Notes: generated from the sequence alone by a model not told the origin. DNA of 64,000 nucleotides from an uncultured Alphaproteobacteria bacterium (GCA_964647725.1 CAZYJI010000003.1:70121-134120); one strand, 5' to 3'. Counted from the first letter of the stretch, positions 13,634 through 53,726 are shown. Numbers and translations are program-made.

Positions 13634-13647
13634 TAAAAAGAACTCCG

Positions 13648-17155: not shown

Positions 17156-17236
17156 ACGTAGACCGTAGGATGCAATAAATATGGATAGTAATTATGATAG
17201 AATATAGGATAAAATTCTGCCCACTGTCCACCATCT

Positions 17237-17422
17237 ATGGCCAATCACATGGAAGAAGATCTCCCCCGCCCAACCGCAACGCCACCGAATTTGGAAAAAA
17301 TGTCGGTTGCGGAATTGCAAAATTATATTGAATCGCTAAAGGCGGAAATCGCCCGCGCCGAAACCATGATCAAAAGCAAACAATCGGTTCGATCCGGCGC
17401 AGAGGCTTTGTTTAAAAAGTAA
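17237..17422 (+). CDS. DUF1192 family protein
   Basis: LEKMSVAELQNYIESLKAEIARAE ... ALFKK. Confidence 0.7.
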   Translation: MANHMEEDLPRPTATPPNLEKMSVAELQNYIESLKAEIARAETMIKSKQSVRSGAEALFKK

Positions 17423-17431
17423 ATTTGGAAA

Positions 17432-17866: not shown

Positions 17867-17990
17867 GGATCTAGAGTCCCCCTTCAATCCACAAGGCATT
17901 TGCCATATGGATAAAGATACTATGCACAATACACCCCCCTTGCACCAGCATCATATTTCGCACTCGCAACAAACAGGTTTGCATGCGCCG

Positions 17991-18029
17991 CCAAAAAGCA
18001 ACAGCCCGCCGGATAAACCAGGCGGGCTG
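17991..18029 (-). terminator. rho-independent terminator downstream of rpmE
   Basis: agcccgcc ... ggcgggct stem with a U-run on the minus strand. Confidence 0.5.
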
Positions 18030-18050
18030 CATACAAAGATATTGTAATAT

Positions 18051-18311
18051 CTACTCTTTTTTCGCGTCTGCAGCAGGAGCAGCCGGTTTTTTGGCGCCTG
18101 GCATGCCGGCAAAACGTTTGTTGAATTTGGCCAACTGACCGCCTTCGATCAACTTCTGCTGACCGCCGGTCCATGCCGGATGCGATTTCGAATCGACATC
18201 CAAACGCAGCGTATCGCCCGGTTTGCCATAGCTGGAACGGGTTTTATAGGTCGTGCCATCGGTCATGATGACGTTGATTTCATGATAGTTTGGATGAATG
18301 TCTGGTTTCAT
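18051..18311 (-). CDS. rpmE: 50S ribosomal protein L31
   Basis: [30 protein letters not shown]. Confidence 0.9.
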
Positions 18312-18477
18312 AGCTGCCTCTAATTAAAAAAGCCTGGCTGTTTTTTTGGTACCAGGCCGGTTCCGTATTAAAATTTTGCCTTTTATAAACAATTTCAGCC
18401 GCTTATGCAAGCGATAAACCGCGTATTGCCGCGCTCCCCCGGGCTTGCTATATATAAGGCTAAGTAACGGAAAAAAC

Positions 18478-18801
18478 ATGAAAAATTTTGCCACTGCCGC
18501 AGCCGAGACGCTGGAAAGCCTGATGCATCAGCTCGAGGAGCGGTTTGGGGACGATGCGGAATTGGACCTGGAAGACGGCGTTTTACGGGCCGAATTCGAT
18601 AACGGGGTATATTTAATTAACCGCCACATGCCCTTGCAACAACTATGGCTGTCTTCGCCCAAATCCGGCGCGTGGCATTTTGCCCCCGCTTATTTCAACG
18701 ACACCAAATCCGCCGATTGGTTGTCGACGCGCGGCGAAAAAATTTCGATCTATGATTTATTGAACAAAGAATTAAAACCCGCCGAGGCATTTTGTAAATG
18801 A
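18478..18801 (+). CDS. cyaY: frataxin homolog CyaY (iron donor for Fe-S assembly)
   Basis: DLEDGVLRAEFDNGVYLINRHMPLQQLWLSSPKSGAWHF. Confidence 0.8.
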   Translation: MKNFATAAAETLESLMHQLEERFGDDAELDLEDGVLRAEFDNGVYLINRHMPLQQLWLSSPKSGAWHFAPAYFNDTKSADWLSTRGEKISIYDLLNKELKPAEAFCK

Positions 18802-20573: not shown

Positions 20574-20675
20574 ATATTAGCCCTACGAAACGGTATTTAT
20601 TAAGGAAATAGCGCTTGACGCTGCGCTTATATTTTGCGAATTTGACGATCTATTAATTTAACAGCGAGAATAATA

Positions 20676-21911
20676 ATGACTTTTGTGTTTACCCCTGCCG
20701 ACCAAACAAAACGTATTAAGCCTTCCGCAACTTTAGCAGTTAACAATTTAGCCAGACAGATTGCGGAAGATCAAAAGAAATTGCCCGAAGAGAATCGTTT
20801 AGAAGTCATTGGATTTGCAGTTGGTGAACCGGACAAGCAAACACCGCCGCATGTCGGAGTGGCCATGGCGGAATTTGCCCATGCGGGGATCAACAGATAC
20901 TCTAAACCGGATGCGGCGACCTTGGTTCCTCTGATCCGAAAGAAGTTTCAAGATGATAACGGCTTAACCTATACCGACAAACAAGTTACTAGCGGTGTTG
21001 GTGGTAAGGAATTGGTGTTTTGGGGTATTGGCACTTGTGTGAACCCGGGCGATGAAGTCGTTATACCTGCCCCATATTGGGTTTCCTATCCTGAAATCGT
21101 CAATTATTTCGGCGGCACAGCCAAATCAATTGTGCCAACACGTTCGGATCTAAAAATCACGCCGGAAGAATTACGCGCGGCGATCACGCCAAAAACCAAG
21201 TTATTTATTATTAATCAACCTTCTAATCCTGCTGGCGTTGTATATTCTAAACAGGAATTGCTAGCATTAGCAGAAGTTTTGCGGGAAGCGGTCAAAACCA
21301 ATCCGAATCTGGTGATCATCACCGATGATATTTATGAAAAATTGGTATACGGAGCGGAGTTCTTTACATTGCCACAGTTGGCTCCAGATTTAGCCGAGCG
21401 CACCCTAGTAATTAACGGCATAAGCAAATCTCATGCTTTTACTGGGGGCAGATTTGGATTCTGCGGCGGCCCAGAGGCGTGGATTGGCGCGATTAATAAA
21501 ATGATATCGCAGTCCAGCACGCATGGACCAACCATTATACATGCTGGCGCAGCGGCGGCATTATCGGGGTCTTACGAATTTTTGGTAGAATGGCGCGAAG
21601 ATTATAAACGTCGGCGCGATTTTGTTCTAAACCGCTTGGAGGTAATGGGTATTCCGTGCGCAAAGCCAGATGGCGCTTTTTATGTATTTCCGAATATCTC
21701 CGGCGAATTAGGAAACGATCCATCCGTTCAAACAGACGAACAATTCGTTATGGCATTATTACGCAACCAACATGTTGCTTGCGTTCATGGAAGCGCGTTT
21801 GGCATGCCGGGATATATGCGTATTTCCTATGCGACATCGGATAGAAATTTAGAAGTTGGTTTAGACCGTATGGCACAATTCTTAAAAAGCCTGCGCCAAC
21901 GCGCCGCGTAA
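20676..21911 (+). CDS. PLP-dependent aminotransferase, class I (aspartate aminotransferase-like)
   Basis: Fold-type I aminotransferase; SKSHAFTG Lys motif. Confidence 0.85.
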   Translation: MTFVFTPADQTKRIKPSATLAVNNLARQIAEDQKKLPEENRLEVIGFAVGEPDKQTPPHVGVAMAEFAHAGINRYSKPDAATLVPLIRKKFQDDNGLTYTDKQVTSGVGGKELVFWGIGTCVNPGDEVVIPAPYWVSYPEIVNYFGGTAKSIVPTRSDLKITPEELRAAITPKTKLFIINQPSNPAGVVYSKQELLALAEVLREAVKTNPNLVIITDDIYEKLVYGAEFFTLPQLAPDLAERTLVINGISKSHAFTGGRFGFCGGPEAWIGAINKMISQSSTHGPTIIHAGAAAALSGSYEFLVEWREDYKRRRDFVLNRLEVMGIPCAKPDGAFYVFPNISGELGNDPSVQTDEQFVMALLRNQHVACVHGSAFGMPGYMRISYATSDRNLEVGLDRMAQFLKSLRQRAA

Positions 21912-22736
21912 TTACTTTTTAATAACGATATCGACGCGGTCTTTGGCGCCGGATTCTGGCGTGCCCATCGGCTTGACGCCCAATTGCGATCCGGAAACGC
22001 CCATGCCGATTAACGTATCACGCACTTGTAAAATGCGGGTCAATGCGGTGCGGCGCGCCTCGGCCGGGTTGTTTTTTGGCGCGGTGGCATAACCGCGCAA
22101 TTCCGCTGGGACATTCGATGCTTTTAATTTGCTGCCCACTTTTTTCACTTGGGCCATGCCGTTTGAATCCAAATCCGTTTCATCCTTATCGAATCCAACC
22201 GATCCGACCACCGTTCCGGCGACCGAATTTGGGCGCGTGACCGTAACATTGGCGCCGGCACCGCCGCGCGTGCGCGGATCAATATCGTTCCAACGGTACC
22301 CGCCATACATATTGCCGGCAATGTTAGTAACAAATTGGCCAGCAGCCGGAAAGAATCCACCAGCAGCAGCACGGAAAGAAGATTTTGGCGTGGCTTTGAA
22401 TTTACCGGATTTACGCGCGGTTTCGCCGAATACGACTTCGTTCAAATTGCTTTTCGGTTTTTTGCGCGGTGGCGGAGATAATTCACCCGAACGCGCCGCA
22501 TAATACGCGGCTTGATTCGCTTGTTTAGCGCCGGTGACCACAAATGGTTTATGCGATTGATATTCGGAATAATATTGCAAAGGCACGGTCGGTTCCGGTC
22601 CCAGATTTTGCATAATATATGGATTCACGACAACGGCATCGCGATACGGATATGCGGCCGCAGCCGATCCCGCGCAAACAGTGCCCGCGCAAATCAAAGC
22701 AAAAATCAATTTAGTTTTTTTGGACAAGAAATTCAT
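21912..22736 (-). CDS. OmpA-family protein (peptidoglycan-binding C-terminal domain)
   Basis: Signal peptide, Gly-rich middle region and an OmpA_C-like tail. Confidence 0.6.
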   Translation of the reverse strand: MNFLSKKTKLIFALICAGTVCAGSAAAAYPYRDAVVVNPYIMQNLGPEPTVPLQYYSEYQSHKPFVVTGAKQANQAAYYAARSGELSPPPRKKPKSNLNEVVFGETARKSGKFKATPKSSFRAAAGGFFPAAGQFVTNIAGNMYGGYRWNDIDPRTRGGAGANVTVTRPNSVAGTVVGSVGFDKDETDLDSNGMAQVKKVGSKLKASNVPAELRGYATAPKNNPAEARRTALTRILQVRDTLIGMGVSGSQLGVKPMGTPESGAKDRVDIVIKK

Positions 22737-22811
22737 CCCGGTTATTATAGCCATGTAAAATATAGAATTGGCAACAAACTGACAACCGATTTTTAAAATA
22801 TCCGGTAAATA

Positions 22812-23645
22812 TTAGGCTATTTTCGGTTTGGCCACCGATTCGATCTGGGCCAGGGTCTTAACACCCAACATTTCGGAAAAAGGCTTAATAATCTCGTTAT
22901 TAGCGGCAATGATATCCTTAGTCATGGCGGTCGCAGGCTGACCATTATAATCCACAACATAACCGCCCGCTTCACGGACCAATAAAATGCCTGCCGCGAT
23001 ATCCCATGGCTTCATATTCCGTTCCCAATACGCATCGAAACGCCCAGCCGCCATATAGGCCAAATCCAGTGATGCCGTTCCCATGCGCCGCACGCCGGAA
23101 ACTTGGGTCGATATGATTTCCAGTTCCTTATTGAATGTCGTGATATCGCCCTGGCCTTTGAATGGAATGCCGGTTGCGATCAAACACTGGCTGAAATCCT
23201 TGCGCGACGATACGCGTAAACGGCCCGAACGGTTGGTAAAAGCACCAGTGCCTTTTTCCGCCCAGTATGCTTCGTCATACAGCGGATGGTAAACAAACGC
23301 CGCAACAACCTCGCCCGCTTTTTCCAGCGCGACCGAAATCGCAAAATGCGGCACGGCGTGCAAAAAATTGGTGGTGCCATCCAGCGGATCGATGATCCAG
23401 CGATGCTCGCCATCGCCAACGACATCCGCGCCTTCTTCGGTCATAAAACCGAATGCGGGGCGGGCGCGTTGCAATTCTTCGCGCAAAATTTTATCGGCTT
23501 TGCGGTCGGCGGCGGAAACGAAATCGGCCGGGCCTTTTTTCGATACCTGTAAATGCTCGACTTCGTTAAAATCGCGCGTCAAGGATTTGCCCGCCTTGCG
23601 GCAAGCGGCTTCGACTACGGTTAACAGGGGCGATAATCTGGACAT
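22812..23645 (-). CDS. suhB: inositol monophosphatase family protein
   Basis: WIIDPLDGTTNF and the IMPase fold. Confidence 0.85.
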   Translation of the reverse strand: MSRLSPLLTVVEAACRKAGKSLTRDFNEVEHLQVSKKGPADFVSAADRKADKILREELQRARPAFGFMTEEGADVVGDGEHRWIIDPLDGTTNFLHAVPHFAISVALEKAGEVVAAFVYHPLYDEAYWAEKGTGAFTNRSGRLRVSSRKDFSQCLIATGIPFKGQGDITTFNKELEIISTQVSGVRRMGTASLDLAYMAAGRFDAYWERNMKPWDIAAGILLVREAGGYVVDYNGQPATAMTKDIIAANNEIIKPFSEMLGVKTLAQIESVAKPKIA

Positions 23646-24211
23646 TAGTTTTTGGCGCGTTCGATAAAGCTGCCATCGTCGGTGCGCACGACAACCATTT
23701 CGCCGCTGGCCATATATTGCGGCACCATGATGCGCGCGCCGTTCGACAATTTCGCGGTTTTAAATCCGCCTGATGCAGTTTGGCCCTTTACAACCGGTTC
23801 CGCTTCGACGATTTCCATCACTACCGATTCCGGCAACGTTACGCCCAATGGCTTGCCTTCGTGCATGGCGATTTGCACTTGCATGCCGTCTTGCAGGAAT
23901 TGTGCTGGCTCGCCGATCAAATCGCGGTCGACCACGATTTGTTCGTAATTTTCGTTATTCATGAAGGTCACTTGATCGCCTTCGGCGAACAGATATTGAT
24001 GCGCGACTTCATCGATGCGTACGCGTTCAACCACTTCGGTCGAAGAAAAGCGGAAATCTTTTTTATTGCCTGAGGCAACGTCTTTGGCCTCGACTTGGAC
24101 GAAAGCGCGCAGATTGCCTGGGGTTCTGTGTTCAACCTTGGTCACGGTCAAAAGTTTGGTTTCGACCTCGATGATATTGCCTGGTTTCAGGGCGTTGGCT
24201 TGGGTTTTCAT
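23645..24211 (-). CDS. efp: elongation factor P
   Basis: 188 aa; KPGNIIEVETKLLTVTKVEH ... KDVASGNKK. Confidence 0.9.
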   Translation of the reverse strand: MKTQANALKPGNIIEVETKLLTVTKVEHRTPGNLRAFVQVEAKDVASGNKKDFRFSSTEVVERVRIDEVAHQYLFAEGDQVTFMNNENYEQIVVDRDLIGEPAQFLQDGMQVQIAMHEGKPLGVTLPESVVMEIVEAEPVVKGQTASGGFKTAKLSNGARIMVPQYMASGEMVVVRTDDGSFIERAKN

Positions 24212-24285
24212 TTACCTACCTCTAAATAATTTGCCCGGCTTCCATGAATTTGGGGGCCGGGCCATTCAATTCTGGGGCGGAAAGT

Positions 24286-24306
24286 AGCAGAATCGCGTAG
24301 ATTCTG
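24286..24306. other. perfect 8-bp-arm hairpin GCAGAATC-gcgta-GATTCTGC just 3' of thiE
   Basis: Read directly from the sequence. Contains GAATC/GATTC (GANTC) sites. Possible terminator or operator. Confidence 0.3.
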
Positions 24307-24314
24307 CAACTTGA

Positions 24315-24935
24315 TTATATGCTTGAAATATAGAGTTTAAAGGCCTCTATGCCTGCTTTTGCGCCTTTATCATGTTCCCAAACCGCGGATACGACCGCGA
24401 TGAAATCCGCGCCTGCGTCGATTAACGGTTTGCAATTATCCGGCGTAATCCCGCCGATGGCAACGCACGGCACGGTGGTCAATTCCACCCAATCGCGTAA
24501 CAATTCAACCGTTGGACGATATCCCGAATCCTTGGTTTTGGTTGGATAGAACGCGCCAAAGGCGACGTATTCGGCGCCCGCATCCGCCGCTTTAAACGCC
24601 AGATCCTTGGAATCGTGACAAGTCACGCCGATCATTTTATTCGGACCCAGAATTTGCCTCGCTTCGGCATAAGGCATATCGCTTTGCCCCAAATGTACCC
24701 CGTCGCAATCGTACCGGTGCGCCAGATCGACATAATTATTGATGATCAGCGGAATGTCATGCGCATGGCATACTTCCAAAACCGGCTCGACGGTGCGTTC
24801 AATGGCGACCATTGGCATGTCTTGCAGGCGCAATTGGAATACCGAAATCAAACCAGTGGATAATGCCACATCCAATTCCGGCAAGAATTGGTCCAGAGAG
24901 ATTTGCGGCGGAGAGATTAAATAAAGTTGGGTCAT
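24315..24935 (-). CDS. thiE: thiamine-phosphate synthase
   Basis: TIM-barrel ThiE; MIGVTCHD ... VAFGAFYPTKTK. Confidence 0.85.
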   Translation of the reverse strand: MTQLYLISPPQISLDQFLPELDVALSTGLISVFQLRLQDMPMVAIERTVEPVLEVCHAHDIPLIINNYVDLAHRYDCDGVHLGQSDMPYAEARQILGPNKMIGVTCHDSKDLAFKAADAGAEYVAFGAFYPTKTKDSGYRPTVELLRDWVELTTVPCVAIGGITPDNCKPLIDAGADFIAVVSAVWEHDKGAKAGIEAFKLYISSI

Positions 24936-25999
24936 TAATGAATTATTGCTTGTAAACCGCGTAATATTTTTTCTGGATCGTATAGTTTGAATGCATTAAA
25001 AGCCATAATCGGCATAGCTGGATATTTACCGGCATCCGCAATCATTACAATATTAGGATAAGGATAGTATTGTGCTAGAATCCAGAACTTATCCGATTGT
25101 TCTTGTATATATACTACTCCCATTTTCATTCTTTCCTCGGCAGGGAATTTTTCAATCCAACTGCTAAAATATCTATCGGGCTTAATTCCAATTTGCGATA
25201 ACAAAACTGCATTTCCTGCAAAAATATAATTCATCCATGCTGTCAACCTGTCCGCCTGCGCTTTATATTCAGAATTACGCAGCAAAAGCTTAAAGTCTTT
25301 ATTGAATTGGTTAGAGCGGGCACATAATAACATTCCATCGCCTAAATTGTTAACCACCTTCAATTGAGGCGGTAAAGAAGTCATAGCCTGAGAGGAATAT
25401 ATAGGAAACAATTTTTCAGCCTGCTCCGCTACATCATATAACCGCTTTTGCAATTCTTTAATGTTATCATCCGGCGCATTTTTTCTAATCCACCCTTGTT
25501 GATAAACTGGAATCCGGTCGGAATTTATAAAACGCTCCCCATCCACAAAGGAAACTTTCATTATATTTGATACAATGCCAATTTGGAATACAATCGCCAT
25601 ATCATAAAGAGCGCTGTATAAAACAAAATTCTGCACTGTCGGATGGTTGATTCCTCCTACCGCAACTAATTGGGCGGTTGTAAGTATAGGCAACCAACAC
25701 GGATCAAATTCTGCTATGTCCGCGATCACCTCCTTTTTAGTTTCTCCTTCCTGTAAAATACCAGACAAACCTTTTTGCGAGGATGCTTGATGCACATTAC
25801 TCAAATACCTCAAATTGGATTGCAAGACTCCGGCTGATAACCGTGCATCAGCAACTGATATTCCAAATTTCTGTGTTAAATTGGATTGCAATTTGATCGT
25901 TTGCGCTTCGTCCAATTGTAAAATAGCTTGCGCTGTGACGACTTGGGCAAAAAACAATCCTAATAGAATTGTAAAAAGAAAAATACCCAATTTACTCAT
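24935..25999 (-). CDS. secreted hypothetical protein, low-GC gene
   Basis: Signal peptide MSKLGIFLFTILLGLFFAQVVTAQA. Sampled stretches are about 37-40% GC against roughly 50% in neighbours. 1-nt overlap with thiE. Confidence 0.5.
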   Translation of the reverse strand: MSKLGIFLFTILLGLFFAQVVTAQAILQLDEAQTIKLQSNLTQKFGISVADARLSAGVLQSNLRYLSNVHQASSQKGLSGILQEGETKKEVIADIAEFDPCWLPILTTAQLVAVGGINHPTVQNFVLYSALYDMAIVFQIGIVSNIMKVSFVDGERFINSDRIPVYQQGWIRKNAPDDNIKELQKRLYDVAEQAEKLFPIYSSQAMTSLPPQLKVVNNLGDGMLLCARSNQFNKDFKLLLRNSEYKAQADRLTAWMNYIFAGNAVLLSQIGIKPDRYFSSWIEKFPAEERMKMGVVYIQEQSDKFWILAQYYPYPNIVMIADAGKYPAMPIMAFNAFKLYDPEKILRGLQAIIH

Positions 26000-26001
26000 A
26001 A

Positions 26002-26964
26002 TCAGCTCTTCAAAATCGCGATCATATCGTCGAATAATTTCATCGCTTCGGCTTTAGGGCGTTGAAACGCGTTGCGGCCCATGATCGAACCATTACCGCC
26101 GCCCGCCTTGATCGCGCGCATTTCATCGAGAATCGAAGCCGTATCTTTCGCCTCTCCGCCAGAAAACACAACAAGGCGCCGTCCGTTGAAACAAGCCTGG
26201 GTAATATGTTTTACGCGATCGGCCAATGTGCCAACCGGAATTTTCTGTTCGGTATAGGATTTTTTCGCAGCTTCTAGCCAGATTACATCCGATGGCAATT
26301 TTACCTTAATCATATGCGCGCCGGCCTGGCATGCCATGTGCGCGGCATAGGCGACAACGTCAATCGCGGTTTCCGCTTCTTTCGGCAAAACGCCGCCGCG
26401 CGGATAACACCACACCACGGTTGGCAAGCCATGCGATTTTGCTTCAGCAATGATATCGCGCAATTCTTCCATTTGCGCGTTATAAGATTCCGATCCGTTA
26501 TACAGCGTAAATCCAACCGCCGTGCAACCCAAACGCACCGCATCCTTGACACTGCACAACACCGCTTGATCCGGATTGGTTTTATTCGACAACAACGAAT
26601 TGCCGTGATTCATTTTTAAAATTAACGGAATTTTTCCGGCAAAAGTTTCAACGCCGCATTCCAGCGCGCCAAGCGGCGCCGCATACGCGTTCAAATCCGA
26701 TTCGATGCCCAATTGATAAAAATAATGCGGATCGTAACAAACCGGATTCATCGCAAACGACCGTGCTGGCCCGTGTTCGAATCCCTGATCGACCGGCAAG
26801 ATAATCATCTGGCCGGTGCCGCCTAAGCGACCTTGCATTAAAATACGGCCCAAATTTTCTTTGGTCGCGCCACTGTCCGATTCATAATTTTTCAAAATCT
26901 TTTTTACGGTTTCAGATGGAGCAACAGATTTCGGCGGATGTTGGTTTTTCAAAACAGCGGTCAT
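26002..26964 (-). CDS. fbaB: class I fructose-bisphosphate aldolase (FbaB/DhnA-type)
   Basis: ILPVDQGFEHGP matches the FbaB ILPVDQGVEH motif. Confidence 0.8.
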   Translation of the reverse strand: MTAVLKNQHPPKSVAPSETVKKILKNYESDSGATKENLGRILMQGRLGGTGQMIILPVDQGFEHGPARSFAMNPVCYDPHYFYQLGIESDLNAYAAPLGALECGVETFAGKIPLILKMNHGNSLLSNKTNPDQAVLCSVKDAVRLGCTAVGFTLYNGSESYNAQMEELRDIIAEAKSHGLPTVVWCYPRGGVLPKEAETAIDVVAYAAHMACQAGAHMIKVKLPSDVIWLEAAKKSYTEQKIPVGTLADRVKHITQACFNGRRLVVFSGGEAKDTASILDEMRAIKAGGGNGSIMGRNAFQRPKAEAMKLFDDMIAILKS

Positions 26965-27049
26965 GGTACTACCTCTTTCAGGGCTGGTCTCGGCACTATT
27001 GGCGTATAGCGGATAATCTAGCCAATTCCGGTAATTTTGCCAAAGTTAT

Positions 27050-28009
27050 TTATGCCGATTTTTTGAATTTTTGATATTCGGGATTGACCAAAAAACGGTC
27101 TTGGCCAGTTTTCAATAAATTTAATATGCTATCTGTCGCCATGGCGCTGACTTTTCTGATCGAAGGCGTGGTATTGAACGCGGTCGACGCATTGGTCGTA
27201 TAACAGGAATAATATGGCATATTGTTCCAGCCGGAAAATTCATGGTCCGAAGCCACAAAAATTTCGCCCTTTTCAACGCGAGATTTCAACGCGGCCGCAT
27301 CGATCAATGCATTGGTGGAGATATTCACTAAAATGCTGCCTGGCTGCATTTTATGAATAATAGGTGCGGTTAATAAAGGGCTACCGGCCTTGGTATCAAT
27401 GCAAACCGCAATCACATTGCAAGTCGCGGCCAAATCCAACAAAGGCAGGAATTTCGCGCCGGTTACCGCCTCCGCTTCGGGCCGAGACGTGCGGTTATAA
27501 TAAAAAATTCCGGCCGGAGAAAAACCGCTTAGCATTTTTGCCAACGTCTGGCCGATATGGCCGAAACCAACGATGCCGATTTTGCTGTTGGCGAGGCTCG
27601 CGGCCGATCCGAACGAGGATTTTCCGCCAGCGCCGAATTTCAACAATTGACGCAATTGCATTAAAATCGTCGCCATCATGAATTCCGCAACCGCATAGGA
27701 AGGCCCACCCGGAGTGTTGCTAATTGCAATGCCTTTTTGCGTGGCAAGCTGATGGCCCGGAATAAAATCAGCATAACCCGCGCCGGTAAAAGAAATTGCC
27801 CGGAGTTTTTTTGTCGAAGCAATCACCTTGTCCGTTACCGATTCAATGCCGCCCAGAATGTACCCATCTGCATCTTGCAATGCGGCGATTAATTCATCTT
27901 CGGTGGCTTTAGGGTTATCCAAACGCGTAATCTCATATCCACCGGCGCGCAACCGCGCCTCGTCCTCCTGGTCGATAAACAAAGAGTCGGTGATCAGGAT
28001 TTTCGGCAC
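27050..28009 (-). CDS. D-isomer-specific 2-hydroxyacid dehydrogenase family protein
   Basis: GIVGFGHIGQTLAKML Rossmann motif and the 2-HADH fold. Confidence 0.75.
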   Translation of the reverse strand: MPKILITDSLFIDQEDEARLRAGGYEITRLDNPKATEDELIAALQDADGYILGGIESVTDKVIASTKKLRAISFTGAGYADFIPGHQLATQKGIAISNTPGGPSYAVAEFMMATILMQLRQLLKFGAGGKSSFGSAASLANSKIGIVGFGHIGQTLAKMLSGFSPAGIFYYNRTSRPEAEAVTGAKFLPLLDLAATCNVIAVCIDTKAGSPLLTAPIIHKMQPGSILVNISTNALIDAAALKSRVEKGEIFVASDHEFSGWNNMPYYSCYTTNASTAFNTTPSIRKVSAMATDSILNLLKTGQDRFLVNPEYQKFKKSA

Positions 28010-28018
28010 ATGTGCACC

Positions 28019-29023
28019 TTATATCATTTTTGCCATGACGGTTGCGGTATCGAGCATGCGGTTGGAAAAACCCCATTCATTATCGTACCACGACAATACG
28101 CGCGCAAGGCGTTTGTCGACGACTTGGGTTTGCGTGGCATCGAAATTGGATGAATGCGGATCGTGATTGAAATCGGATGATACTAATTCATCGGTTACAT
28201 ATCCAAGCACGCCTTTCAATCGGCCTTCAGCGGCTTTTTTCATTGCGGCGTTGATTTCTTCGGCCGTTACATCGCGCGGGCAAACGAATTTAAAATCGAT
28301 CATCGACACGTTCGCGGTTGGCACGCGCACCGATGTGCCATCCAATTTACCTTTCAATTCCGGAATCACCAAACCCAATGCCTTGGCGGCGCCGGTCGAT
28401 GATGGAATCATCGATAACGCAGCGGCGCGGGCGCGGCGCGGATCTTTGTGAATCGAATCGACCAATTTTTGATCGCCGGTATAGGCGTGCACGGTGGTCA
28501 TAAATCCACGCTCAATTCCAATTTCTTTCAAAATAACGTCGGCAACCGGAGCCAGGCAATTGGTGGTGCAAGAACCGTTCGAAATAACAATATGATCCTT
28601 CGCCAATTTATCGTGATTGACGCCATAAACGATGGTCGCATCGACGCCATCGGCCGGGGCCGATACGATCACGCGTTTCGCGCCAGCGGTTAAATGATGC
28701 GCGGCTTCTTCGCGTTTGGTAAAACGGCCGGAACATTCGAACGCAATATCGATGCCCATATCTTTCCATGGCAATTTGGCCGGATCCGGTTGCGCAACGA
28801 CAGCAATTTTTTGCCCTTGAATTTCAATCGAATTATCGGTTGTTTTCACATCGAATGGAAAACGGCCATGCACCGAATCATAACGCAGCAAATGCGCGTT
28901 CGATTTCACATCACCCAAATCGTTGATGGCGACAATCTGAATATCCTTGCGGCCCGATTCAAAAAGCGCGCGTAAAACCAATCGTCCAATCCTGCCGAAA
29001 CCATTAATTGCTACTTTTGTCAT
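28019..29023 (-). CDS. gap: glyceraldehyde-3-phosphate dehydrogenase
   Basis: MTKVAINGFGRIGR ... SCTTNCLAP. Confidence 0.95.
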   Translation of the reverse strand: MTKVAINGFGRIGRLVLRALFESGRKDIQIVAINDLGDVKSNAHLLRYDSVHGRFPFDVKTTDNSIEIQGQKIAVVAQPDPAKLPWKDMGIDIAFECSGRFTKREEAAHHLTAGAKRVIVSAPADGVDATIVYGVNHDKLAKDHIVISNGSCTTNCLAPVADVILKEIGIERGFMTTVHAYTGDQKLVDSIHKDPRRARAAALSMIPSSTGAAKALGLVIPELKGKLDGTSVRVPTANVSMIDFKFVCPRDVTAEEINAAMKKAAEGRLKGVLGYVTDELVSSDFNHDPHSSNFDATQTQVVDKRLARVLSWYDNEWGFSNRMLDTATVMAKMI

Positions 29024-29035
29024 TTTTACTCCAAC

Positions 29036-31042
29036 TTACTTTCCTAATTTAGACTTTGCCAATTCAACTACTTTGTCCGGCGTGATGCCGAAATGTTTAA
29101 ACAAATCACCCGCTGGCGCCGATGCGCCAAAGGAATTCATACCAACAAATCCGCCACCCGGACCGATAAAACCATCCCAGCCCTGACGCACGCCGGCCTC
29201 GATCGCGATTTTGACTTTGCTGTTGCCGATCACTTGCGATTGATACGCCGCATCTTGTTGTGCGAACAACGCGCAACATGGCACCGACACAATGCGCGTT
29301 GCAATACCTTGTGTATCCAATTTCGCCTTGGCATCCATCGCAACGCCAATTTCGGATCCAGTTGCAAACAACGTTACTGGCGCATTTGGTGCATCGACCA
29401 AAATATACGCGCCGCGCGCGGAGAAATTTTCGGTTGCATTATCGCGCACATGCGGCACTGCCTGACGGGTCAATGCAATCACGCTTGGGCCGTCCTGGCG
29501 GCTTAAGGCCAGTTCCCAGCATTCCGCAACCTCGACCGAATCGGCCGGACGGAAGAACCATAAATTCGGAATCGCGCGCAATGCGGCATAATGTTCGACC
29601 GGTTGATGCGTCGGTCCATCTTCGCCAAGCCCGATCGAATCATGCGTCATTACATAAATCACACGCTGATGCATGATCGCCGACAAACGAATCGCCGGGC
29701 GGCAATAATCCGTGAAAATCAAAAACGTGCCGCCATACGGAATAATCCCGCCATGCAGGCTCATCCCATTCATTGCCGCCGCCATACCATGTTCGCGCAC
29801 ACCGTAATGAATGTATGTTCCGGCATAAGTGGGCGCCGCAACAACGGTGTGCGTTTTGACCTTGGTATTATTGGATGGCGTTAAATCGGCCGAACCGCCG
29901 ACCATTTCCGGCAATAAAGGCTGAACAACTTCTAACACTTTGCCGGACGATTGACGGGTCGCCAATTTTTCGCGCTTTGCAATCAAATCGGCTTTGAATT
30001 TCGCCAAGGCTTCGGAAACATTGACTGGAATTTTGCCCTCTAAACGGCGGGTAAATTCAATGCGTTTTTCGTGGGCACCCAAGCGTTTTTGCCAAGCATT
30101 ATATTGTTCCGCGCCGCGCGCGCCGATGGTACGCCAGGCATGCAAAATATTTTGCGGAATTTCAAATTCCGGCGCATCCCAAATCAATTTCGCGCGCGTG
30201 CCGGAAATTTCTTCCGCGCCCAAGGGCGAGCCGTGCGAATCATGCGTGCCGGCTTTTTTCGGCGCGCCATAACCGATCACGGTACGACAAGCAATCATCG
30301 TCGGACGGTCGGATTTTTGCGCGCGTTGCAATGCGCCCGCGATTTCATCCGGCTTGTGGCCATCGACGCGTTCGGCGTTCCATCCAGCCGCCTTGAACCG
30401 CGCGACTTGATCGCCGGATTCCGATAAATGCAATTCGCCATCGATGCTGATGTTATTGTCATCAAACAGCACGATCAATTTACCCAATTTCATATGCCCG
30501 GCGAGCGAGATTGCCTCGTGGCTGATGCCTTCCATCAAATCGCCATCGCTGGCGATGTCCTAGGTGTAATGATTGACCAATTCATCGCCAAAACTGGCGT
30601 GCATAATTCTTTCGGCCAATGCAAATCCAACCGAATTGGCGATGCCTTGTCCCAATGGACCGGTGGTGGTTTCAATTCCGGCCGCATAACCATATTCCGG
30701 ATGGCCAGCCGTTCTGCTGCCCAATTGACGGAATTTTTTGATTTCATCGATGGTCATATCTTCATAACCGGTCAGATATAACAACGAATACAACAACATC
30801 GATCCGTGACCGGCCGATAAAATAAACCGATCGCGATCCGGCCAGGCGGGATTTTTCGGATCGAATTTTAAAAATTGGCTGAATAAAACCGTGGCAACAT
30901 CGGCCATACCCATCGGCATACCGGGATGACCGGATTTGGCGCGTTCGACCGCATCCATAGACAAAAATCGAATGGCGTTGGCCATTTGGTCATGGGGAAT
31001 GTCAATTTTAGGGGAAATTTCGATTTTCGCGGCTAACGTCAT
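29036..31042 (-). pseudogene. tkt: transketolase interrupted by a single in-frame TAG
   Basis: N-terminal 160-aa ORF ([12 protein letters not shown] ... ELVNHYT) and C-terminal 500-aa ORF (MEGISHEA ...) are in the same frame, separated by TAG at 30560-30562 where Tyr is expected. The GDG thiamine-diphosphate motif is still present. Confidence 0.7.
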
Positions 31043-32540: not shown

Positions 32541-32705
32541 GGTAAGCGGCCTTTCGCGTTAGGGTGCATGCAACCCACCGGCCGATTAAAACTCTTCGGG
32601 AGCTGTCTCTGTCTGGGCCGTGGTTCAGGTATATGGTTCCCACCTGGTCTTTTGGGCCATGGCGGAGTTCATCGTCACCCAACGGTCACGGCGGCTTACC
32701 AACTT
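32541..32705 (+). ncRNA. ssrS: 6S RNA (SsrS), predicted
   Basis: The 5' GGUAAGCGGCC pairs with the 3' GGCGGCUUACC, and GGGUG pairs with CACCC, giving a long closing helix around a central region. About 165 nt, immediately upstream of 5-formyl-THF cyclo-ligase (the conserved ssrS-ygfA arrangement). Confidence 0.55.
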
Positions 32706-32714
32706 GGAATTTGA

Positions 32715-33293
32715 ATGACCGATCTTGAATTAGCCAAAAAATCCTTACGCGAAGAAGTTTTGAAAAAGCGCAGTGCCGTGCACAGCATGTCGCGCGAACG
32801 CGCCGCGAACACGATTCGCGATTTATTTTTACAAGCCTTGCCGTTACGCCCCGGTTCTATTGTCGCCGGATATTGGCCGTTGCCGGGCGAAGTAGATTCC
32901 ACCCCGCTTTTAAACGCGCTCGCGGAAAAGAAATTTGAAATTTGCCTGCCGGTTGTAACCGAACACGAATCGCCGCTGATTTTCCGCAAGTGGACGGTAG
33001 GGATGAATTTAGGCGAAGGGTACGCGGGTACGCGTATTCCACCAGCAGAATCGCCAATCTTAAACCCGGATATTTTGGTGGTGCCCTTGGTGGCGTTTGA
33101 CCGCGCCGGATATCGTTTGGGTTATGGCGGCGGGTTTTACGACCGCACCTTAAACGCCATGCGCGCCCAGCGGCAGATTATGGCGGTTGGATTGGCCTAT
33201 GCGGCACAACAAGTTCCCTTGGTCCCGCACGAAGGCACCGATGAAAAACTGGATTGGGTAGTAACCGAAGAACTGGCAATTAACTGTAATTAG
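32715..33293 (+). CDS. ygfA: 5-formyltetrahydrofolate cyclo-ligase
   Basis: GYWPLPGEVD ... GYGGGFYDRTL. Confidence 0.85.
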   Translation: MTDLELAKKSLREEVLKKRSAVHSMSRERAANTIRDLFLQALPLRPGSIVAGYWPLPGEVDSTPLLNALAEKKFEICLPVVTEHESPLIFRKWTVGMNLGEGYAGTRIPPAESPILNPDILVVPLVAFDRAGYRLGYGGGFYDRTLNAMRAQRQIMAVGLAYAAQQVPLVPHEGTDEKLDWVVTEELAINCN

Positions 33294-37069: not shown

Positions 37070-37255
37070 TAGAAGAGCAAAATACGGATAAAAAGCGGTT
37101 AACCGCCCCTTATACCCACAAGATATAGGCGTTTACAGTATAGATCTGCCATAGTAAGTGGGCTATAAAATAAGGGAATTTGCACGCAATTGGACGCCGG
37201 ATAAAGGCCGGTTGTCGACATATTTACAACGTCTTAGCAAGGTTTTGGATCGCAC

Positions 37256-38011
37256 ATGGCAGGCCATAGTCAGTTTAAGAATATTATGCACCGTAAGGGC
37301 GCGCAGGATAAAAAGCGCGGCAAAATATTCACCAAATTAATCCGCGAGATCACAACCGCCGCCCGCGCTGGCGCGCCGGATCCAAATACCAATCCCCGTC
37401 TTCGCGCCGCCGTCACCATGGCGCGCAACGCCAATATGCCCAAAGACACGATCGAGCGCGCGATCAAACGCGGCAGCGGCGCGGACGGCGCGGATAATTT
37501 CGAAGAAATCCGGTACGAAGGATATGGCCCAGCCGGTATTGCCATTATCGTCGAAGGATTGACCGACAACCGCACCCGCACCGCTGGCGAAGTTCGCGCC
37601 GCGTTTGCCAAGCATGGTGGAAATCTGGGCGAAACCGGCAGTGTCAGTTTCATGTTCGAACATATCGGCGCGATTTTATATCCCGTCAAAACCGGCAGCG
37701 CCGATAAAATGCTGGAGGCCGCGATTGACGCTGGCGCAGGAGATGTCGAATCCACCGAAGACGGGCATTTCATTTCTTGCGCGCCCGGCGATTTAAATCA
37801 TGTGCGCGATGCCTTAGAAAAACAATTTGGCGAGGCCGAAAGCGTAAAATTATCCTGGAAACCGACCAATCTGGTTCCGGTTCCCGAAGAAGCCGCGAAA
37901 GATTTATTGAAACTGGTCGAAGTATTAGAAGACAATGACGACGTGCAGAATGTGTACGGCAATTTCGACATCGACGCGGCGGTAATGGAAAAACTGGCCA
38001 ATGCCGGATAA
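37256..38011 (+). CDS. YebC/PmpR family DNA-binding regulator
   Basis: [28 protein letters not shown]. Confidence 0.9.
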
Positions 38012-38513
38012 ACCGCAACGCATTTTGGGCATCGATCCCGGACTTGTCCATACGGGCTGGGGGATTGTCGATTGCCAAGGCAATCAATTGCGTGGCATCG
38101 CCAGCGGCACGATTTCGGCCAGCACGAAACTGGAAACCGCCCAGCGCCTGCAATATATTTTTGAACAATTATCCGCCATAATCACCGAATATAAACCCAT
38201 GGCGGCAGCGGTCGAAGAAAGTTTTGTCGCGCAAAATTCCGCAAGCGCCCTGAAATTGGGCATGGCGCGCGGGATTGCCTTGCTGGCGCCAGCGGCGGCT
38301 GGCGTGCCAGTATGCGAATACAGCGCCAAGCTGGTCAAAAAGGCGATTGTCGGAACCGGCAATGCCGATAAAAATCAAATGTTTTTAATGGTCCAGCGTT
38401 TGTTAAAGGGCCTGATAATTGAATCCGAACATGCAGCCGACGCGCTGGCGATTGCCATTTGTCACGGCCACCACGCCCAAACGCAACAAAAATTTCATAT
38501 AAAATCCGCATAA
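38001..38513 (+). CDS. ruvC: Holliday junction resolvase RuvC
   Basis: [17 protein letters not shown]. Confidence 0.9.
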
Positions 38514-38610
38514 AAACACGGTGGATGACCCAAAATAAGCGGTTGAATTCGCCGCCGATCCGGGCTATGCAATCCTTATCTTATTGATCCATTTTTACGA
38601 GGAATTCCCC

Positions 38611-39285
38611 ATGAACTTTTCCCAAATTTTGAAAGAGCGCATTGCGCCTTTGAATCTGCTCAATCACCCATTTTACCAAACCTGGAACATGGGCGAATTG
38701 TCCAACGAAACATTGCAACATTATGCCGGACAATATTTCCATCATGTGTCTGCATTCCCCCGTTACATCAGCGCGACTCATTCGATCTGCGAAGATATTT
38801 CCAAGCGTAAATTATTGCTGGAAAACTTGGTCGACGAAGAAAACCGCGGCACCGATCATCCGGAATTATGGATGCAATTCGCCGAAGCTTTGGGCGCATC
38901 CCGCGAAGACGTGAAAAAAGCGGTCTTGGCTGGCGAAACCAAGCAATTGATCGAAACATTTTTCTCGTTCTGCCGTAACACCTATGCCGAAGGTTTGGCA
39001 TCGTTGTACGCGTACGAACATCAGATCCCGGAAATCGCCACCGTGAAAATCGACGGTTTGAAAAAATTCTATGGCGTTGAATCGGACCAAGGATTGAAAT
39101 TCTTTACCGTTCACCAAGAAGCCGACGTGTTTCACCGTGAAGCATGCGAAAAATTGCTGGATCAATTGAGCCCGGCCGAACAAGAACAGGCATTAAACGC
39201 CGCTGAAACCACCGCGAAAGCGTTGTGGAACTTCTTGTCGGGCGTTCAATCGACCTACGAATGCGCCTCTGGCTGCAAACATTAA
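38611..39285 (+). CDS. CADD-family diiron protein (CT610-like; candidate pABA synthase)
   Basis: HPFYQTWNMGELSNETLQHYAGQY, LVDEENRGTDHPELW, YAYEHQIPE and HQEADVFH (H-x3-D-x2-H) match the CADD dimetal ligand spacing. RBS GAGGAA upstream. Confidence 0.7.
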   Translation: MNFSQILKERIAPLNLLNHPFYQTWNMGELSNETLQHYAGQYFHHVSAFPRYISATHSICEDISKRKLLLENLVDEENRGTDHPELWMQFAEALGASREDVKKAVLAGETKQLIETFFSFCRNTYAEGLASLYAYEHQIPEIATVKIDGLKKFYGVESDQGLKFFTVHQEADVFHREACEKLLDQLSPAEQEQALNAAETTAKALWNFLSGVQSTYECASGCKH

Positions 39286-39313
39286 TAGACTTAACAGTCT
39301 GTTATCTGGAAAA

Positions 39314-39344
39314 GGGCGGGTTTATCCCGCCCTTTTTGTTTTTA
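39314..39344 (+). terminator. rho-independent terminator after the CADD gene
   Basis: gggcggg-tttat-cccgccc followed by tttttgttttt. Confidence 0.6.
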
Positions 39345-39403
39345 TCCCAGACCCCCGTTCCCTTGTTTGACTTTATCATTTCGGCAATAGTATAGTTCTT
39401 GAT

Positions 39404-40036
39404 ATGTTCGCAAAATTAAAAGGCATCCTGGATTCAACCGATACCGATACGATCATCATCGATGTCGGCGGTGTTGGGTATTTAGCCAGCGCATCACGCA
39501 AAACCATCGATCAATTGCCGGCAATCGGCCGGCCGGTCAGCGTGATTATCGACACGCATGTGCGTGAAGACAAAATTCAATTATTCGCGTTTCTAAGCGA
39601 ACAAGAACGCGACATGTTCCGTTTATTGCAAACATTGCAAGGCATCGGCGGCAAGGCCGCGTTATCCATTCTATCTGCACTGACTCCACAACAATTAATC
39701 GCCGCAATTGCATCCGGCGACAAGGCCGCCGTTGGCGAGGCCGATGGCATTGGCCCGAAACTGGCGTTGCGTGTGGTGACCGAATTAAAAGACAAAGTCG
39801 GCAAAATGGCGCTATCGTTTGTACCAGGCAAAACTGATGGACAAAGCGGCAATGCCGCAACCAATAATAATTCCTTGCCGCTAATTCATGCCGAAGATGC
39901 GATTTCGGCGCTGGTAAATCTTGGTTATACCCGCATGGATGCGTTCCGCGCGGTTGCGAATTTGGCTAAAACTTTGGATGCGGATACGCCGGTGCAGAAA
40001 ATTATTCCCGCCGCGCTCAAGGAATTGGCCGCATGA
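39404..40036 (+). CDS. ruvA: Holliday junction helicase subunit RuvA
   Basis: MFAKLKGIL ... GVGY ... LQGIGGKAALSIL. Confidence 0.9.
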   Translation: MFAKLKGILDSTDTDTIIIDVGGVGYLASASRKTIDQLPAIGRPVSVIIDTHVREDKIQLFAFLSEQERDMFRLLQTLQGIGGKAALSILSALTPQQLIAAIASGDKAAVGEADGIGPKLALRVVTELKDKVGKMALSFVPGKTDGQSGNAATNNNSLPLIHAEDAISALVNLGYTRMDAFRAVANLAKTLDADTPVQKIIPAALKELAA

Positions 40037-40109
40037 AAATCCTCCTTCGCCAAGGCTTCGGAGGACAGGCCGCTCACGTTTGTATTTTCAGTAAGAATGA
40101 AATATTGAA

Positions 40110-41144
40110 ATGAAAACTTCTACTGTCCTTTCTGCCGAACCGATTGAAACCGACGATGGGCGCGTTGAAAAATCTTTACGCCCCAACATGCTGGCCGAAT
40201 TTATCGGCCAGGACGATGTTTGCGACAATTTAAAAATCTTTATTTCCGGCGCGAATGCGCGGACCGAGGCGCTGGATCACGTTTTACTGCACGGCCCGCC
40301 AGGGCTTGGCAAAACCACGCTCGCGCAAATTATTGCCAAGGAAATGGGCGTCGGTTTCCGCGCCACATCCGGCCCGATTATTACCAAGGCCGGCGATCTG
40401 GCCGCGATCTTGACCAATTTACAACCGCGCGATGTTTTGTTTATCGATGAAATTCACCGCCTAAATCCGGCGGTCGAAGAAGTTTTATATCCCGCGATGG
40501 AAGATTTCCAATTGGATTTAATGATCGGCGAAGGTCCATCCGCGCGCAGTGTGCGCATCGATTTACCGCCATTTACACTGGTTGCCGCAACCACGCGCAC
40601 CGGCTTGATGACAACCCCCTTGCGCGAACGGTTTGGCATTCCACTGCGTTTGAATTTTTATGAATCTAGCCATCTGCAGGATATTATTTTACGTTCCTCC
40701 AAATTATTACAAATGAATTTGACCGGCGATGGATCAATGGAAATCGCCAAGCGGTCGCGCGGCACGCCACGCGTCGCGGGACGCTTGCTTCGCCGGGTGC
40801 GCGATTTCGCCGATCATATCAAGGCCAAATCCATCGACGCCAAAATTGCCGATGAAGCATTGAAACGCCTGGATGTCGACGGCAAGGGTTTGGACAGCAT
40901 GGACCGGAAATTCCTGTCTTGCATTGCCGAGGTTTATCGCGGCGGCCCGGTCGGGATCGAAACCCTCGCCGCTTATCTTGCGGAACAGCGCGATACGCTG
41001 GAAGATGTGATTGAACCTTATTTGATTCAACAAGGCTTATTACAACGCACCTCGCGGGGACGAGTCTTGACCGATCAGGGTTTTACCTATGTCGGCCTAA
41101 CCCCGCCCCCACGTCCAACCGAGCAATTGGGCCTGACGGAATAG
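40110..41144 (+). CDS. ruvB: Holliday junction helicase RuvB
   Basis: [17 protein letters not shown] ... LFIDEIHRL. Confidence 0.95.
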
Positions 41145-41184
41145 TCATTTTAAAAACCGCCAAATCCGTCTATAACCCTTTGTT

Positions 41185-41646
41185 ATGTCTAATCCCACAG
41201 TTCATTTATCCGGCCATTTCAACGGTTTTACCCATCATCTGCCCCAGCGCGTCTATTACGCCGAAACCGATGCTGGCGGCGTGATGTATCACGCGTCATA
41301 CCTGAACCTGGCCGAACGGGCGCGGATGGAATTTTTACGTTTGCTTGGCCATAGTGTGATTGAAATTTCAGAAAAAAACGGCCTTATTTTTGCCTTAAGA
41401 CATTGCGAAATTGATTTTTTAGCGCCCGCTTTTTTGGACGATCTGCTTCTAATTGAAAGCACGATTGTCGAGATGGGTGGCGCGAGCCTGAAATTCCGCC
41501 AAGTTATCAACAGAAACGCGGAAAGCGGGCTGATACGGCTTGCGGAGTTGAATGTAACCTTGGTTGCGATCACCAAAGATGCTAAAGCAACCCGGATTCC
41601 AGATTCCTTGCGGAAGGATTTGGAAAAAATGGTAGAGGAGAAATAA
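41185..41646 (+). CDS. ybgC: Tol-Pal-associated acyl-CoA thioesterase YbgC
   Basis: Hot-dog fold (YAETDAGGVMYHASYL) at the first position of the tol cluster. Confidence 0.8.
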   Translation: MSNPTVHLSGHFNGFTHHLPQRVYYAETDAGGVMYHASYLNLAERARMEFLRLLGHSVIEISEKNGLIFALRHCEIDFLAPAFLDDLLLIESTIVEMGGASLKFRQVINRNAESGLIRLAELNVTLVAITKDAKATRIPDSLRKDLEKMVEEK

Positions 41647-50062: not shown

Positions 50063-50860
50063 ATGACATTTCCCAAACCCGCCCTGATGGGTATTGTCAA
50101 CGTCACCCCCGACAGTTTTTATGACGGCGGGCAATTCACAAACTCTACCACTGCCATTCAACATGCCAAAAAATTGATCGCCGATGGCGCCGATATCATC
50201 GATATTGGCGGCGAATCGACCCGCCCTGGCGCCGCGCCGGTCAGCATCGATGAAGAAATAAAACGGGTTATCCCGCTTATCCAGGAACTGCACGATTGCG
50301 GTAAAATCATTTCCATCGACACGCGCCATGCCGCCGTAATGCAAGTCGCGTGCCAGGCGGGCGCCACGATGATCAACGACATCACTGCCCTGACCCATGA
50401 TCCCGCGTCTATGGATGTGGCCAAAAATTCTGGCGCGGAGATTGTGTTAATGCATATGCAGGGCACGCCGCAAACCATGCAAATCAATCCGCAATATACC
50501 GATGTGGTCGAAGAAATTTACGCCTATCTGGCGGAGCGAATGAATGCCTGCGTTCAATCCGGCATCGCCCAGGATAAAATTATCCTCGATCCCGGCATTG
50601 GGTTTGGCAAAAAACTAAGCCATAATTTAGAGTTACTGAAAAATATAAACCGGTTCCAGGATTTGGGATGCCGCATTTTAATTGGCGTGTCGCGCAAATC
50701 TTTTATCGGGAAATTGGGCGGCGACATTCCCCCATCCGATCGCCTGCCCGGCTCGCTCGCTGCCGCGATTCATGCCTCACAAAACGGCGCGCATATTTTA
50801 CGGGTGCATGATGTGGCGGAAACCAAGCAGGCTTTGACTATTGCGGGCGCGCTTATCTAG
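50063..50860 (+). CDS. folP: dihydropteroate synthase
   Basis: MGIVNVTPDSFYDGG ... DIGGESTRPGA. Confidence 0.9.
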   Translation: MTFPKPALMGIVNVTPDSFYDGGQFTNSTTAIQHAKKLIADGADIIDIGGESTRPGAAPVSIDEEIKRVIPLIQELHDCGKIISIDTRHAAVMQVACQAGATMINDITALTHDPASMDVAKNSGAEIVLMHMQGTPQTMQINPQYTDVVEEIYAYLAERMNACVQSGIAQDKIILDPGIGFGKKLSHNLELLKNINRFQDLGCRILIGVSRKSFIGKLGGDIPPSDRLPGSLAAAIHASQNGAHILRVHDVAETKQALTIAGALI

Positions 50861-52889: not shown

Positions 52890-53726
52890 ATGCAAGGCCG
52901 CGTCCTTATCATCGCCGGATCCGACAGCAGCGGTGGCGCCGGGATTCAAGCCGATATTAAAACCGTAACCGCCCTTGGCGGATATGCGATGACCGCCATC
53001 ACTGCCCTGACCGCGCAAAATACGTTGGGTGTTACCGGTATTCATCCCGTTCCAGCCGATTTTCTACGTGCACAGATTGATGCATGCATCAACGATATTG
53101 GCGTCGATGCGATTAAAACCGGCATGTTGGCAACCGAAGAAAATGTTGCGGTAATTAATGATGCAATCGAAGATTATCCGGAATACGTACCATTGATATT
53201 GGATCCCGTTATGCTGTCGAAAAGCAAGGCGCTTTTAATCGACCCGGCCGCCATTAAACGCATGCAAAAGGATTTGTTTCCTCGCACCGCGGTTTTAACC
53301 CCTAATATTCCTGAAGCCGAATTACTAACCGGCATGACCATTAAAACGCTGGAAGATATGAAAGAAGCGGCGTTCCGCCTACTAGACCAGGGCCCCATTA
53401 CCGTTTTCATCAAAGGCGGGCATTTGGAAAGTACCGGCAGTGAAGTTGTTAATTTGGACGTTATTGACCGGGAACATATTATAGAATACCGCACCCCGCG
53501 CATCGACAGCCGGCATACCCATGGCACAGGTTGTACATTAGCATCAGCAATCGCAACTGGATTTGCACAAGATCTGTCGCCAACTGAATCATTACAGCGT
53601 GCACAGGATTATGTATTAGAAGCCATTAAAACCGCGCCAGGATTTGGTCAAGGCAATGGGCCGTTGAATCACGCCTGGACGGTTCCGGAAGAAATTAAAA
53701 ATCCAGGCAAGAAATCAGCGGCTTAA
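52890..53726 (+). CDS. thiD: hydroxymethylpyrimidine/phosphomethylpyrimidine kinase
   Basis: VLIIAGSDSSGGAGIQADIKT. Confidence 0.85.
   Translation: MQGRVLIIAGSDSSGGAGIQADIKTVTALGGYAMTAITALTAQNTLGVTGIHPVPADFLRAQIDACINDIGVDAIKTGMLATEENVAVINDAIEDYPEYVPLILDPVMLSKSKALLIDPAAIKRMQKDLFPRTAVLTPNIPEAELLTGMTIKTLEDMKEAAFRLLDQGPITVFIKGGHLESTGSEVVNLDVIDREHIIEYRTPRIDSRHTHGTGCTLASAIATGFAQDLSPTESLQRAQDYVLEAIKTAPGFGQGNGPLNHAWTVPEEIKNPGKKSAA

Follow-up and report, generated by a model that had tools for sequence, protein, structure and literature searches.

A gene between ruvC and ruvA of an uncultured alphaproteobacterium probably encodes a self-sacrificing 4-aminobenzoate (pABA) synthase of the CADD/PabS family; profile searches, residue alignment with characterised enzymes and a predicted structure lead us to a probability of about 0.8 for this reading. 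A preliminary description of the window, the 64,000-nucleotide stretch of DNA analysed here, had marked the range 38514-39344, which comprises the CADD gene and both its flanks. The open reading frame runs from an ATG at 38611 to a stop codon at 39283-39285 and specifies 224 amino acids. Every motif that had been quoted from it is in place: HPFY at residues 19–22, W25, GEL at 28–30, DEENRGTDHPELW at 75–87, YAYEHQIPE at 133–141 and HQEADVFH at 168–175. The features discussed below are as follows.

38001..38513, + strand: ruvC, the upstream flank (PF02075)
38543..38573, + strand: candidate promoter block of the CADD gene itself (TTGAAT, 17 nt, TATGCAAT), conserved 5′ of the gene
38599..38604, + strand: ribosome-binding site GAGGAA, 6 nt 5′ of the ATG (read from the sequence)
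38611..39285, + strand: CADD/PabS-family gene, predicted self-sacrificing 4-aminobenzoate synthase, 224 amino acids (HMM, PDB matches, residues, model)
39309..39344, + strand: intrinsic terminator with a 12-bp stem, a 5-nt loop and a T tract
39367..39409, + strand: promoter-like site for ruvA (TTGACT, 18 nt, TATAGT) and GTTC-N7-GTTC over the start codon (consensus scan; putative function)
39404..41144, + strand: ruvA and ruvB, the downstream flank (RuvA and RuvB Pfam domains)
50063..50860, + strand: folP, dihydropteroate synthase, which would consume pABA (PF00809 Pterin_bind, 300 bits)

Family assignment and catalytic residues

The NCBIfam model of the CADD family, TIGR04305, scored 310.1 bits against a cutoff of 200, with protein residues 3–213 covering positions 1–211 of the 212 in the profile. 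Among proteins of solved structure, the best sequence matches were 9pj4, deposited as '4-aminobenzoate synthase' (E = 9.5e-53), 1rcw (CT610; 1.3e-49) and 8va9 (CtCADD; 7.5e-49). Subtracting a 21-residue tag from 9pj4 reproduces the published Tyr25, Lys159, Phe148 and Phe177 numbering, which identifies this entry as NePabS of Nitrosomonas europaea. Identity to the characterised homologues is only 40–44% (CtCADD, 40%; NePabS, 44%).

We aligned the window protein with CtCADD, NePabS and 120 close database homologues. The alignment recovers the published Tyr/Lys numbering of both reference enzymes: Y22 falls on the sacrificial tyrosine (CtCADD Tyr27, NePabS Tyr25) and K146 on the amine-donor lysine (CtCADD Lys152, NePabS Lys159), Tyr27 and Lys152 being the residues that CtCADD sacrifices (PMC9522330, PMC13108848). 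The proposed metal ligands are E76, H83, E136, H168, D172 and H175. Together with the tyrosine and the lysine, these six residues do not vary among the window protein, CtCADD, NePabS and all 120 close homologues, so that the dimetal ligand pattern seen in the preliminary description is borne out by alignment as a predicted site. For CtCADD, we take the corresponding ligands to be E81, H88, E142, H174, D178 and H181 (1RCW). Of 119 complete representatives of clusters at 50% identity, 98 retain all eight catalytic residues. The dimetal site of CADD is composed of three histidines and three carboxylates (PMC11965152, PMC13108848).

An AlphaFold2 model built with 37 sequences (mean pLDDT 91.8, pTM 0.89) is all-helical, and the predicted fold is a heme-oxygenase-like seven-helix bundle. 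Its top Foldseek matches were the CtCADD structures 8vag, 1rcw and 8va9, with TM scores of 0.91–0.95 and an rmsd of 1.4 Å over about 213 residues; PqqC, TenA and UndA followed with clearly lower scores, much weaker E-values and 15–21% identity. Thus, the CADD/CT610-type assignment made in the preliminary description agrees with the family profile, the closest solved proteins, the residues and the predicted fold. Against the orthologues in two related metagenome-assembled genomes (MAGs), L014 and L026, the CADD gene gave dN/dS values of 0.054 and 0.076, and values for the flanking genes were higher (ruvA, 0.13; ruvC, 0.13–0.26). Values in this range indicate a functional and tightly constrained gene under strong purifying selection.

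It is very improbable that the protein is instead another enzyme of the TenA/PqqC/heme-oxygenase-like group, be it PqqC, thiaminase II/TenA or an HDO that acts on a free small-molecule substrate in the manner of BesC or UndA. Pfam matches the protein to broad families only (PF14518 and PF03070, TENA/THI-4/PQQC), JGI labels many homologues 'pyrroloquinoline-quinone synthase', the window carries thiE (24315-24935) and thiD (52890-53726), and Foldseek retrieves PqqC and TenA structures with TM scores of 0.7–0.88. The curated models, however, place all three candidates far below their cutoffs, at 51.7 bits against 240 for PqqC (TIGR02111), 28.8 against 500 for BesC and 18.7 against 130 for TenA (TIGR04306), the last as a partial match confined to residues 16–144; we rejected the TenA and PqqC assignments on these scores. 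A best match to TenA or PqqC, which would have counted against the preliminary description, was not obtained. The 15–21% identity to PqqC and TenA structures also compares poorly with the 40% to CtCADD, and in the protein the Tyr/Lys pair specific to CADD is joined by all three histidines and three carboxylates of the proposed site. Nor did the annotated open reading frames of the 64-kb window contain a pqqA, pqqB, pqqD or pqqE domain that would provide a pqq context.

Proposed chemistry and pABA supply

The scheme that we propose for the CADD/PabS-type protein follows the mechanism of the characterised enzymes (PMC9522330, PMC11965152, PMC13108848). Two metal ions would be held by E76, H83, E136, H168, D172 and H175, and the reduced dimetal cluster would activate O2. 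An oxidising hole would then hop through aromatic residues, Y135 among them, to Y22, which lies some 14 Å away. Excision of the Y22 side chain at the Cα/Cβ bond would leave a glycine behind, K146 would donate its ε-amino group, and both carboxylate oxygens would derive from O2. The reaction would be a single turnover that yields one pABA per protein molecule and consumes the protein, and the released pABA would be condensed with pterin diphosphate by FolP (50063-50860). Activity of the window protein, the metal it uses and its role as the source of pABA for the cell are all predicted here by analogy with these homologues.

Metal preference in the family is set by two positions, occupied by Tyr141 and Tyr170 in CtCADD (Mn/Fe) and by Phe148 and Phe177 in NePabS (Fe/Fe) (PMC11965152). 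In the alignment, the window protein has Y135 at the Tyr141 site and F164 at the Tyr170 site. These positions bear on metal preference and not on family: NePabS is active with phenylalanine at both relay positions (PMC11965152), so F164 does not exclude membership, but its presence in place of Tyr170 means that the radical pathway and the use of metals need not match those of CtCADD. An engineered NePabS variant with the Tyr/Phe pair, F148Y, is cambialistic and shows similar activity with Fe/Fe and Mn/Fe (PMC11965152). Among the 98 complete cluster representatives with all eight residues, 68 have the Tyr/Phe pair, 19 are Y/Y like CtCADD and 2 are F/F like NePabS. Should behaviour follow from sequence, the majority of natural pABA synthases, including the window protein, might be metal-flexible and both studied enzymes atypical, a proposal that we regard as possible but doubtful. 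The Tyr/Phe pair, the commonest natural state, has so far been studied only as an engineered variant, which makes a protein of the window type a sensible enzyme to characterise.

The folP gene, which the preliminary description had cited as the pABA-consuming step near at hand, was indeed located 10.8 kb downstream of the CADD gene, but in an ftsH-folP-glmM arrangement. The same gene order is found in E. coli and is ancestral, so the proximity carries no weight, and we rejected it as a sign of a folate cluster. The CADD gene itself is not clustered with folate genes, its neighbours being ruvC and ruvA. Folate clustering is seen in Chlamydia and Wolbachia, but NE1434, which encodes NePabS, is also unclustered; such linkage is thus not a defining feature of the family. 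In line with the earlier remark that no pabA, pabB or pabC is visible, PabA, PabB and PabC domains were absent from the annotated open reading frames of at least 140 amino acids across the 64-kb window, and no chorismate-binding, class IV aminotransferase or PabA-type GATase domain occurs among its annotated frames. The titles and abstracts listed for Micavibrio and folate contained nothing relevant; among named organisms, Micavibrio sp. is the nearest relative found for this lineage (57% RuvA identity).

The protein could belong to the CADD family and still not be the main source of pABA, in a genome that has pabABC or imports pABA or folate and in which the protein is redundant or has a moonlighting or regulatory role. 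The presence or absence of pabABC was assessed in 64 kb only, linkage to folate genes is lacking, the closest homologues occupy unrelated and variable contexts, and a single-turnover enzyme is costly to run. CtCADD was originally described as an apoptosis-related protein, and NePabS in vitro yields under 0.1 pABA for each monomer; its authors discuss possible alternative roles and activators (PMC11965152). Yet the dN/dS of 0.05–0.08 indicates very strong purifying selection, and the sacrificed tyrosine and lysine are invariant in 120 of 120 close homologues, a combination difficult to account for unless selection acts on the pABA chemistry itself. A folP gene is also present in the window, and characterised carriers lack pabABC (PMC4161248). 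On balance we consider such a redundant or secondary role unlikely.

Insertion into the ruv locus

The gene order around the CADD gene is yebC-ruvC-[CADD gene]-ruvA-ruvB-ybgC-tolQRAB-pal, with ruvA at 39404-40036 and ruvB at 40110-41144. Nine public contigs encode the identical protein, and among the six listed, all of the same species (L001–L006), the order ruvC-CADD-ruvA is found wherever the contig reaches that far. In a RuvA scan of species-representative genomes, the sole genome with ruvC-CADD-ruvA was L014, an uncultured alphaproteobacterial MAG (RuvA 82% and CADD 92% identical); a further MAG, L026 (GCA_004295055.1; CADD 94% identical), has ruvC-CADD up to its contig end. By contrast, ruvC adjoins ruvA in the next three lineages, across a spacer of about 100 bp in L015 (RuvA 73%) and L016 (RuvA 64%) and with overlapping genes in L017, Micavibrio sp. 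UBA2400 (RuvA 57%). As the gene is at this site only in the closest relatives (RuvA identity of at least 82%), the insertion is real and restricted to a shallow clade. CADD homologues of 68–80% identity are free-standing genes in four unrelated neighbourhoods.

Splitting of the ruv locus had been taken to argue for acquisition. The comparison with L015, L016 and L017 upholds an insertion, but a foreign source finds no support. GC3 of the CADD gene is 0.564, compared with 0.544 ± 0.046 in 24 neighbouring genes (z = 0.4), and its lower overall GC stems from codon positions 1 and 2; composition thus carries no sign of a foreign origin, and this line of argument was dropped. A mobile-element signature was likewise dismissed, as flanking direct and inverted repeats are short and at chance level only. 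Synonymous divergence of the CADD gene is comparable in magnitude to that of the neighbouring genes, although somewhat lower, which fits residence at the site since the ancestor of the clade. The gene would thus have entered the ruvC-ruvA spacer recently, in the ancestor of a small group of uncultured alphaproteobacteria, and a move within the lineage is no less likely than an import. Contrary to the preliminary description, the block that it interrupts is not universal: E. coli K-12 has yebB and yobI between ruvC and ruvA.

Other ruv spacers of these relatives also hold additional sequence. In L015, the ruvA-ruvB spacer contains a 95-aa frame (969-1256) that is GIY-YIG-like by eye (MRIFVYILKCQDGSYYVGT...), and in L016 it contains two uncharacterised reverse-strand frames of 207 and 201 aa (1901-3135); ruv spacers thus seem to be simply permissive. 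L026 carries an extra stretch of about 170 bp between ruvC and the CADD gene (~5735-5910), with G+C-rich inverted repeats (CCCTCCCCTTGAGGGAGGG ... GCCCTCCCTCAAGGGGAGGGC). This stretch is absent from the window and L014 and looks REP- or MITE-like.

Several elements make the CADD gene look like an independent transcription unit. Its GAGGAA ribosome-binding site recurs in L014 and L026. Outside the region of the ribosome-binding site, no stretch of the ruvC-CADD spacer is conserved over a greater length than the block at 38543-38573, which the window, L014 and L026 have in common; in its 5′ part the spacer has diverged. The consensus scan called no sigma-70 site at this block, which we consider a candidate promoter because of its conservation. 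Downstream, the terminator hairpin, called at 39309-39337, begins 23 bases 3′ of the stop codon and has 7 G-C pairs among the 12 bp of its stem, the longest among the terminator-like sites called between 37100 and 41300. Its predicted folding energy of −26.3 kcal/mol (z = −5.1 relative to shuffles) and the position of GAGGAA agree with the description of the gene as having its own ribosome-binding site and a strong terminator. L014 has a stem-loop and T run at the equivalent place, with a different stem sequence. The conserved upstream block, the ribosome-binding site and the terminator together suggest a separate transcription unit. In carriers, the terminator is predicted to cut ruvAB off from ruvC transcription, and the locus offers a clean and datable case of a housekeeping-type gene put with its own terminator into the ruvC-ruvA spacer.

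Between this terminator and ruvA, positions 39367-39396 form the best sigma-70-like match in 37100-41300 (10 of 12 positions). The match ends 7 nt before the ruvA ATG, so that an mRNA starting from it would be leaderless. GTTC-N7-GTTC, which we take to be the LexA-box consensus of alphaproteobacteria, overlaps the promoter-like site and spans the ruvA start codon (39395-39409). L014 retains the motif, which is missing from L015 and L016, both of which are without the CADD insert; with three occurrences in the window against 1.25 expected, it is weak evidence. A promoter for ruvA and a regulatory role of the motif are both putative.

Could the placement itself be functional, with the supply of pABA and folate, and hence thymidylate, co-regulated with recombination repair? 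We find this hardly credible, even though the arrangement is retained in three diverged members of the clade, the GTTC-N7-GTTC motif lies at the ruvA start, and the locus would echo the nudB-yebC-ruvC operon of E. coli K-12 (L031, NC_000913.3 1944346-1948632). There, nudB, which encodes the folate-pathway enzyme dihydroneopterin triphosphate diphosphatase, lies directly upstream of yebC-ruvC, so that the E. coli locus hosts a folate gene as well, probably by coincidence. The conserved upstream block and the strong terminator point instead to separate transcription, homologues of 68–80% identity sit in unrelated neighbourhoods, and the sister lineages L015 and L016 bear unrelated insertions in their ruvA-ruvB spacers. 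Most likely, the position between ruvC and ruvA is incidental, and no functional link is evident.

A search of the whole window at Rfam gathering thresholds returned only a tRNA and a 6S RNA, and thus no riboswitch or other known RNA in the CADD leader. The 6S RNA (32541-32701, + strand; RF00013, 49.1 bits, gathering score 46.4) is flanked by zapA and the gene for 5-formyltetrahydrofolate cyclo-ligase (32715-33293); zapA-ssrS-ygfA is the classic 6S RNA arrangement. The transketolase gene (29036-31042, − strand) has an in-frame TAG at codon 161 (30560-30562), where the window reads 'YT*DIAS' and the same-species contigs L001 and L007 read 'YTYVIAS'; the difference reflects either a nonsense mutation or a fault of sequencing or assembly. 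L007 (GCA_013565695.1, JACCDT011895317.1) is an 18-kb contig with the gene order of window positions 12410-30869 and an identical aminotransferase. Contig numbers in its assembly run beyond 11 million, which suggests a highly fragmented assembly, probably of a eukaryote or a metagenome, that includes this bacterium as a contaminant or associate. The near-identical strain L008 differs from the window in the segments 24935-25999 and 27050-28009. Around the genes deoC-gap, the window and L007 have a 354-aa frame without Pfam match and a 2-hydroxyacid dehydrogenase that L008 lacks; L008 carries an HTH protein and a 319-aa frame that the window lacks.

Comparison with known systems

The window protein is an unremarkable representative of a family that has been described before and has a curated NCBIfam model; a 94%-identical relative is named 'CADD family putative folate metabolism protein' at NCBI. 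The suggestion that a CADD route outside the chlamydiae would be notable has been overtaken. Both CT610 and NE1434 rescue E. coli mutants in pabA, pabB and pabC, as reported for NE1434 in 2014 (PMC4161248), and the biochemistry of NePabS followed in 2025, with Wolbachia, Rickettsia, Chloroflexi, Sphingomonas and Nitrosomonas among the carriers (PMC11965152). In the 90%-identity database we counted 3,426 CADD homologues, including some from Candidatus Fonsibacter and Oligoflexia, and the family forms 174 clusters at 50% identity (E ≤ 1e-30). The present gene adds an uncultured alphaproteobacterial lineage to the known carriers of pABA synthases, which matters little beyond annotation.

[quoted passage not shown]

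CtCADD/CT610 resembles the window protein in its fold, in sequence without large indels, in the proposed ligands, in the equivalents of Tyr27 and Lys152 and in the tyrosine at position 141. It differs in having Tyr170 where the window protein has a phenylalanine, in its Mn/Fe cofactor and in its place within a folate gene cluster (PMC9522330); no such cluster surrounds the window gene. A 359-aa homologue, P0002 (L013, 971-2050), at first appeared to be a 'Death domain + CADD' fusion. The Death hit is faint, and the protein owes its extra length to a partial tandem duplication that repeats the residues equivalent to CADD 78–212, so this candidate was discarded. CtCADD reportedly acts on host death domains.

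NePabS (NE1434, PDB 9pj4) is the best match among solved sequences and shares with the window protein both the Tyr/Lys pair and the proposed ligands. Like the window protein, it has a phenylalanine at the position of CtCADD Tyr170 (F177 there, F164 here), and like the window gene, its gene is free-standing and outside any folate cluster. The two proteins differ at the Tyr141 position (F148 in NePabS, Y135 here), and NePabS has an extra loop of about nine residues, absent from the window protein, after the helix that ends at window His57. The activity of NePabS has been measured, whereas the window protein is known here from its sequence and predicted structure.
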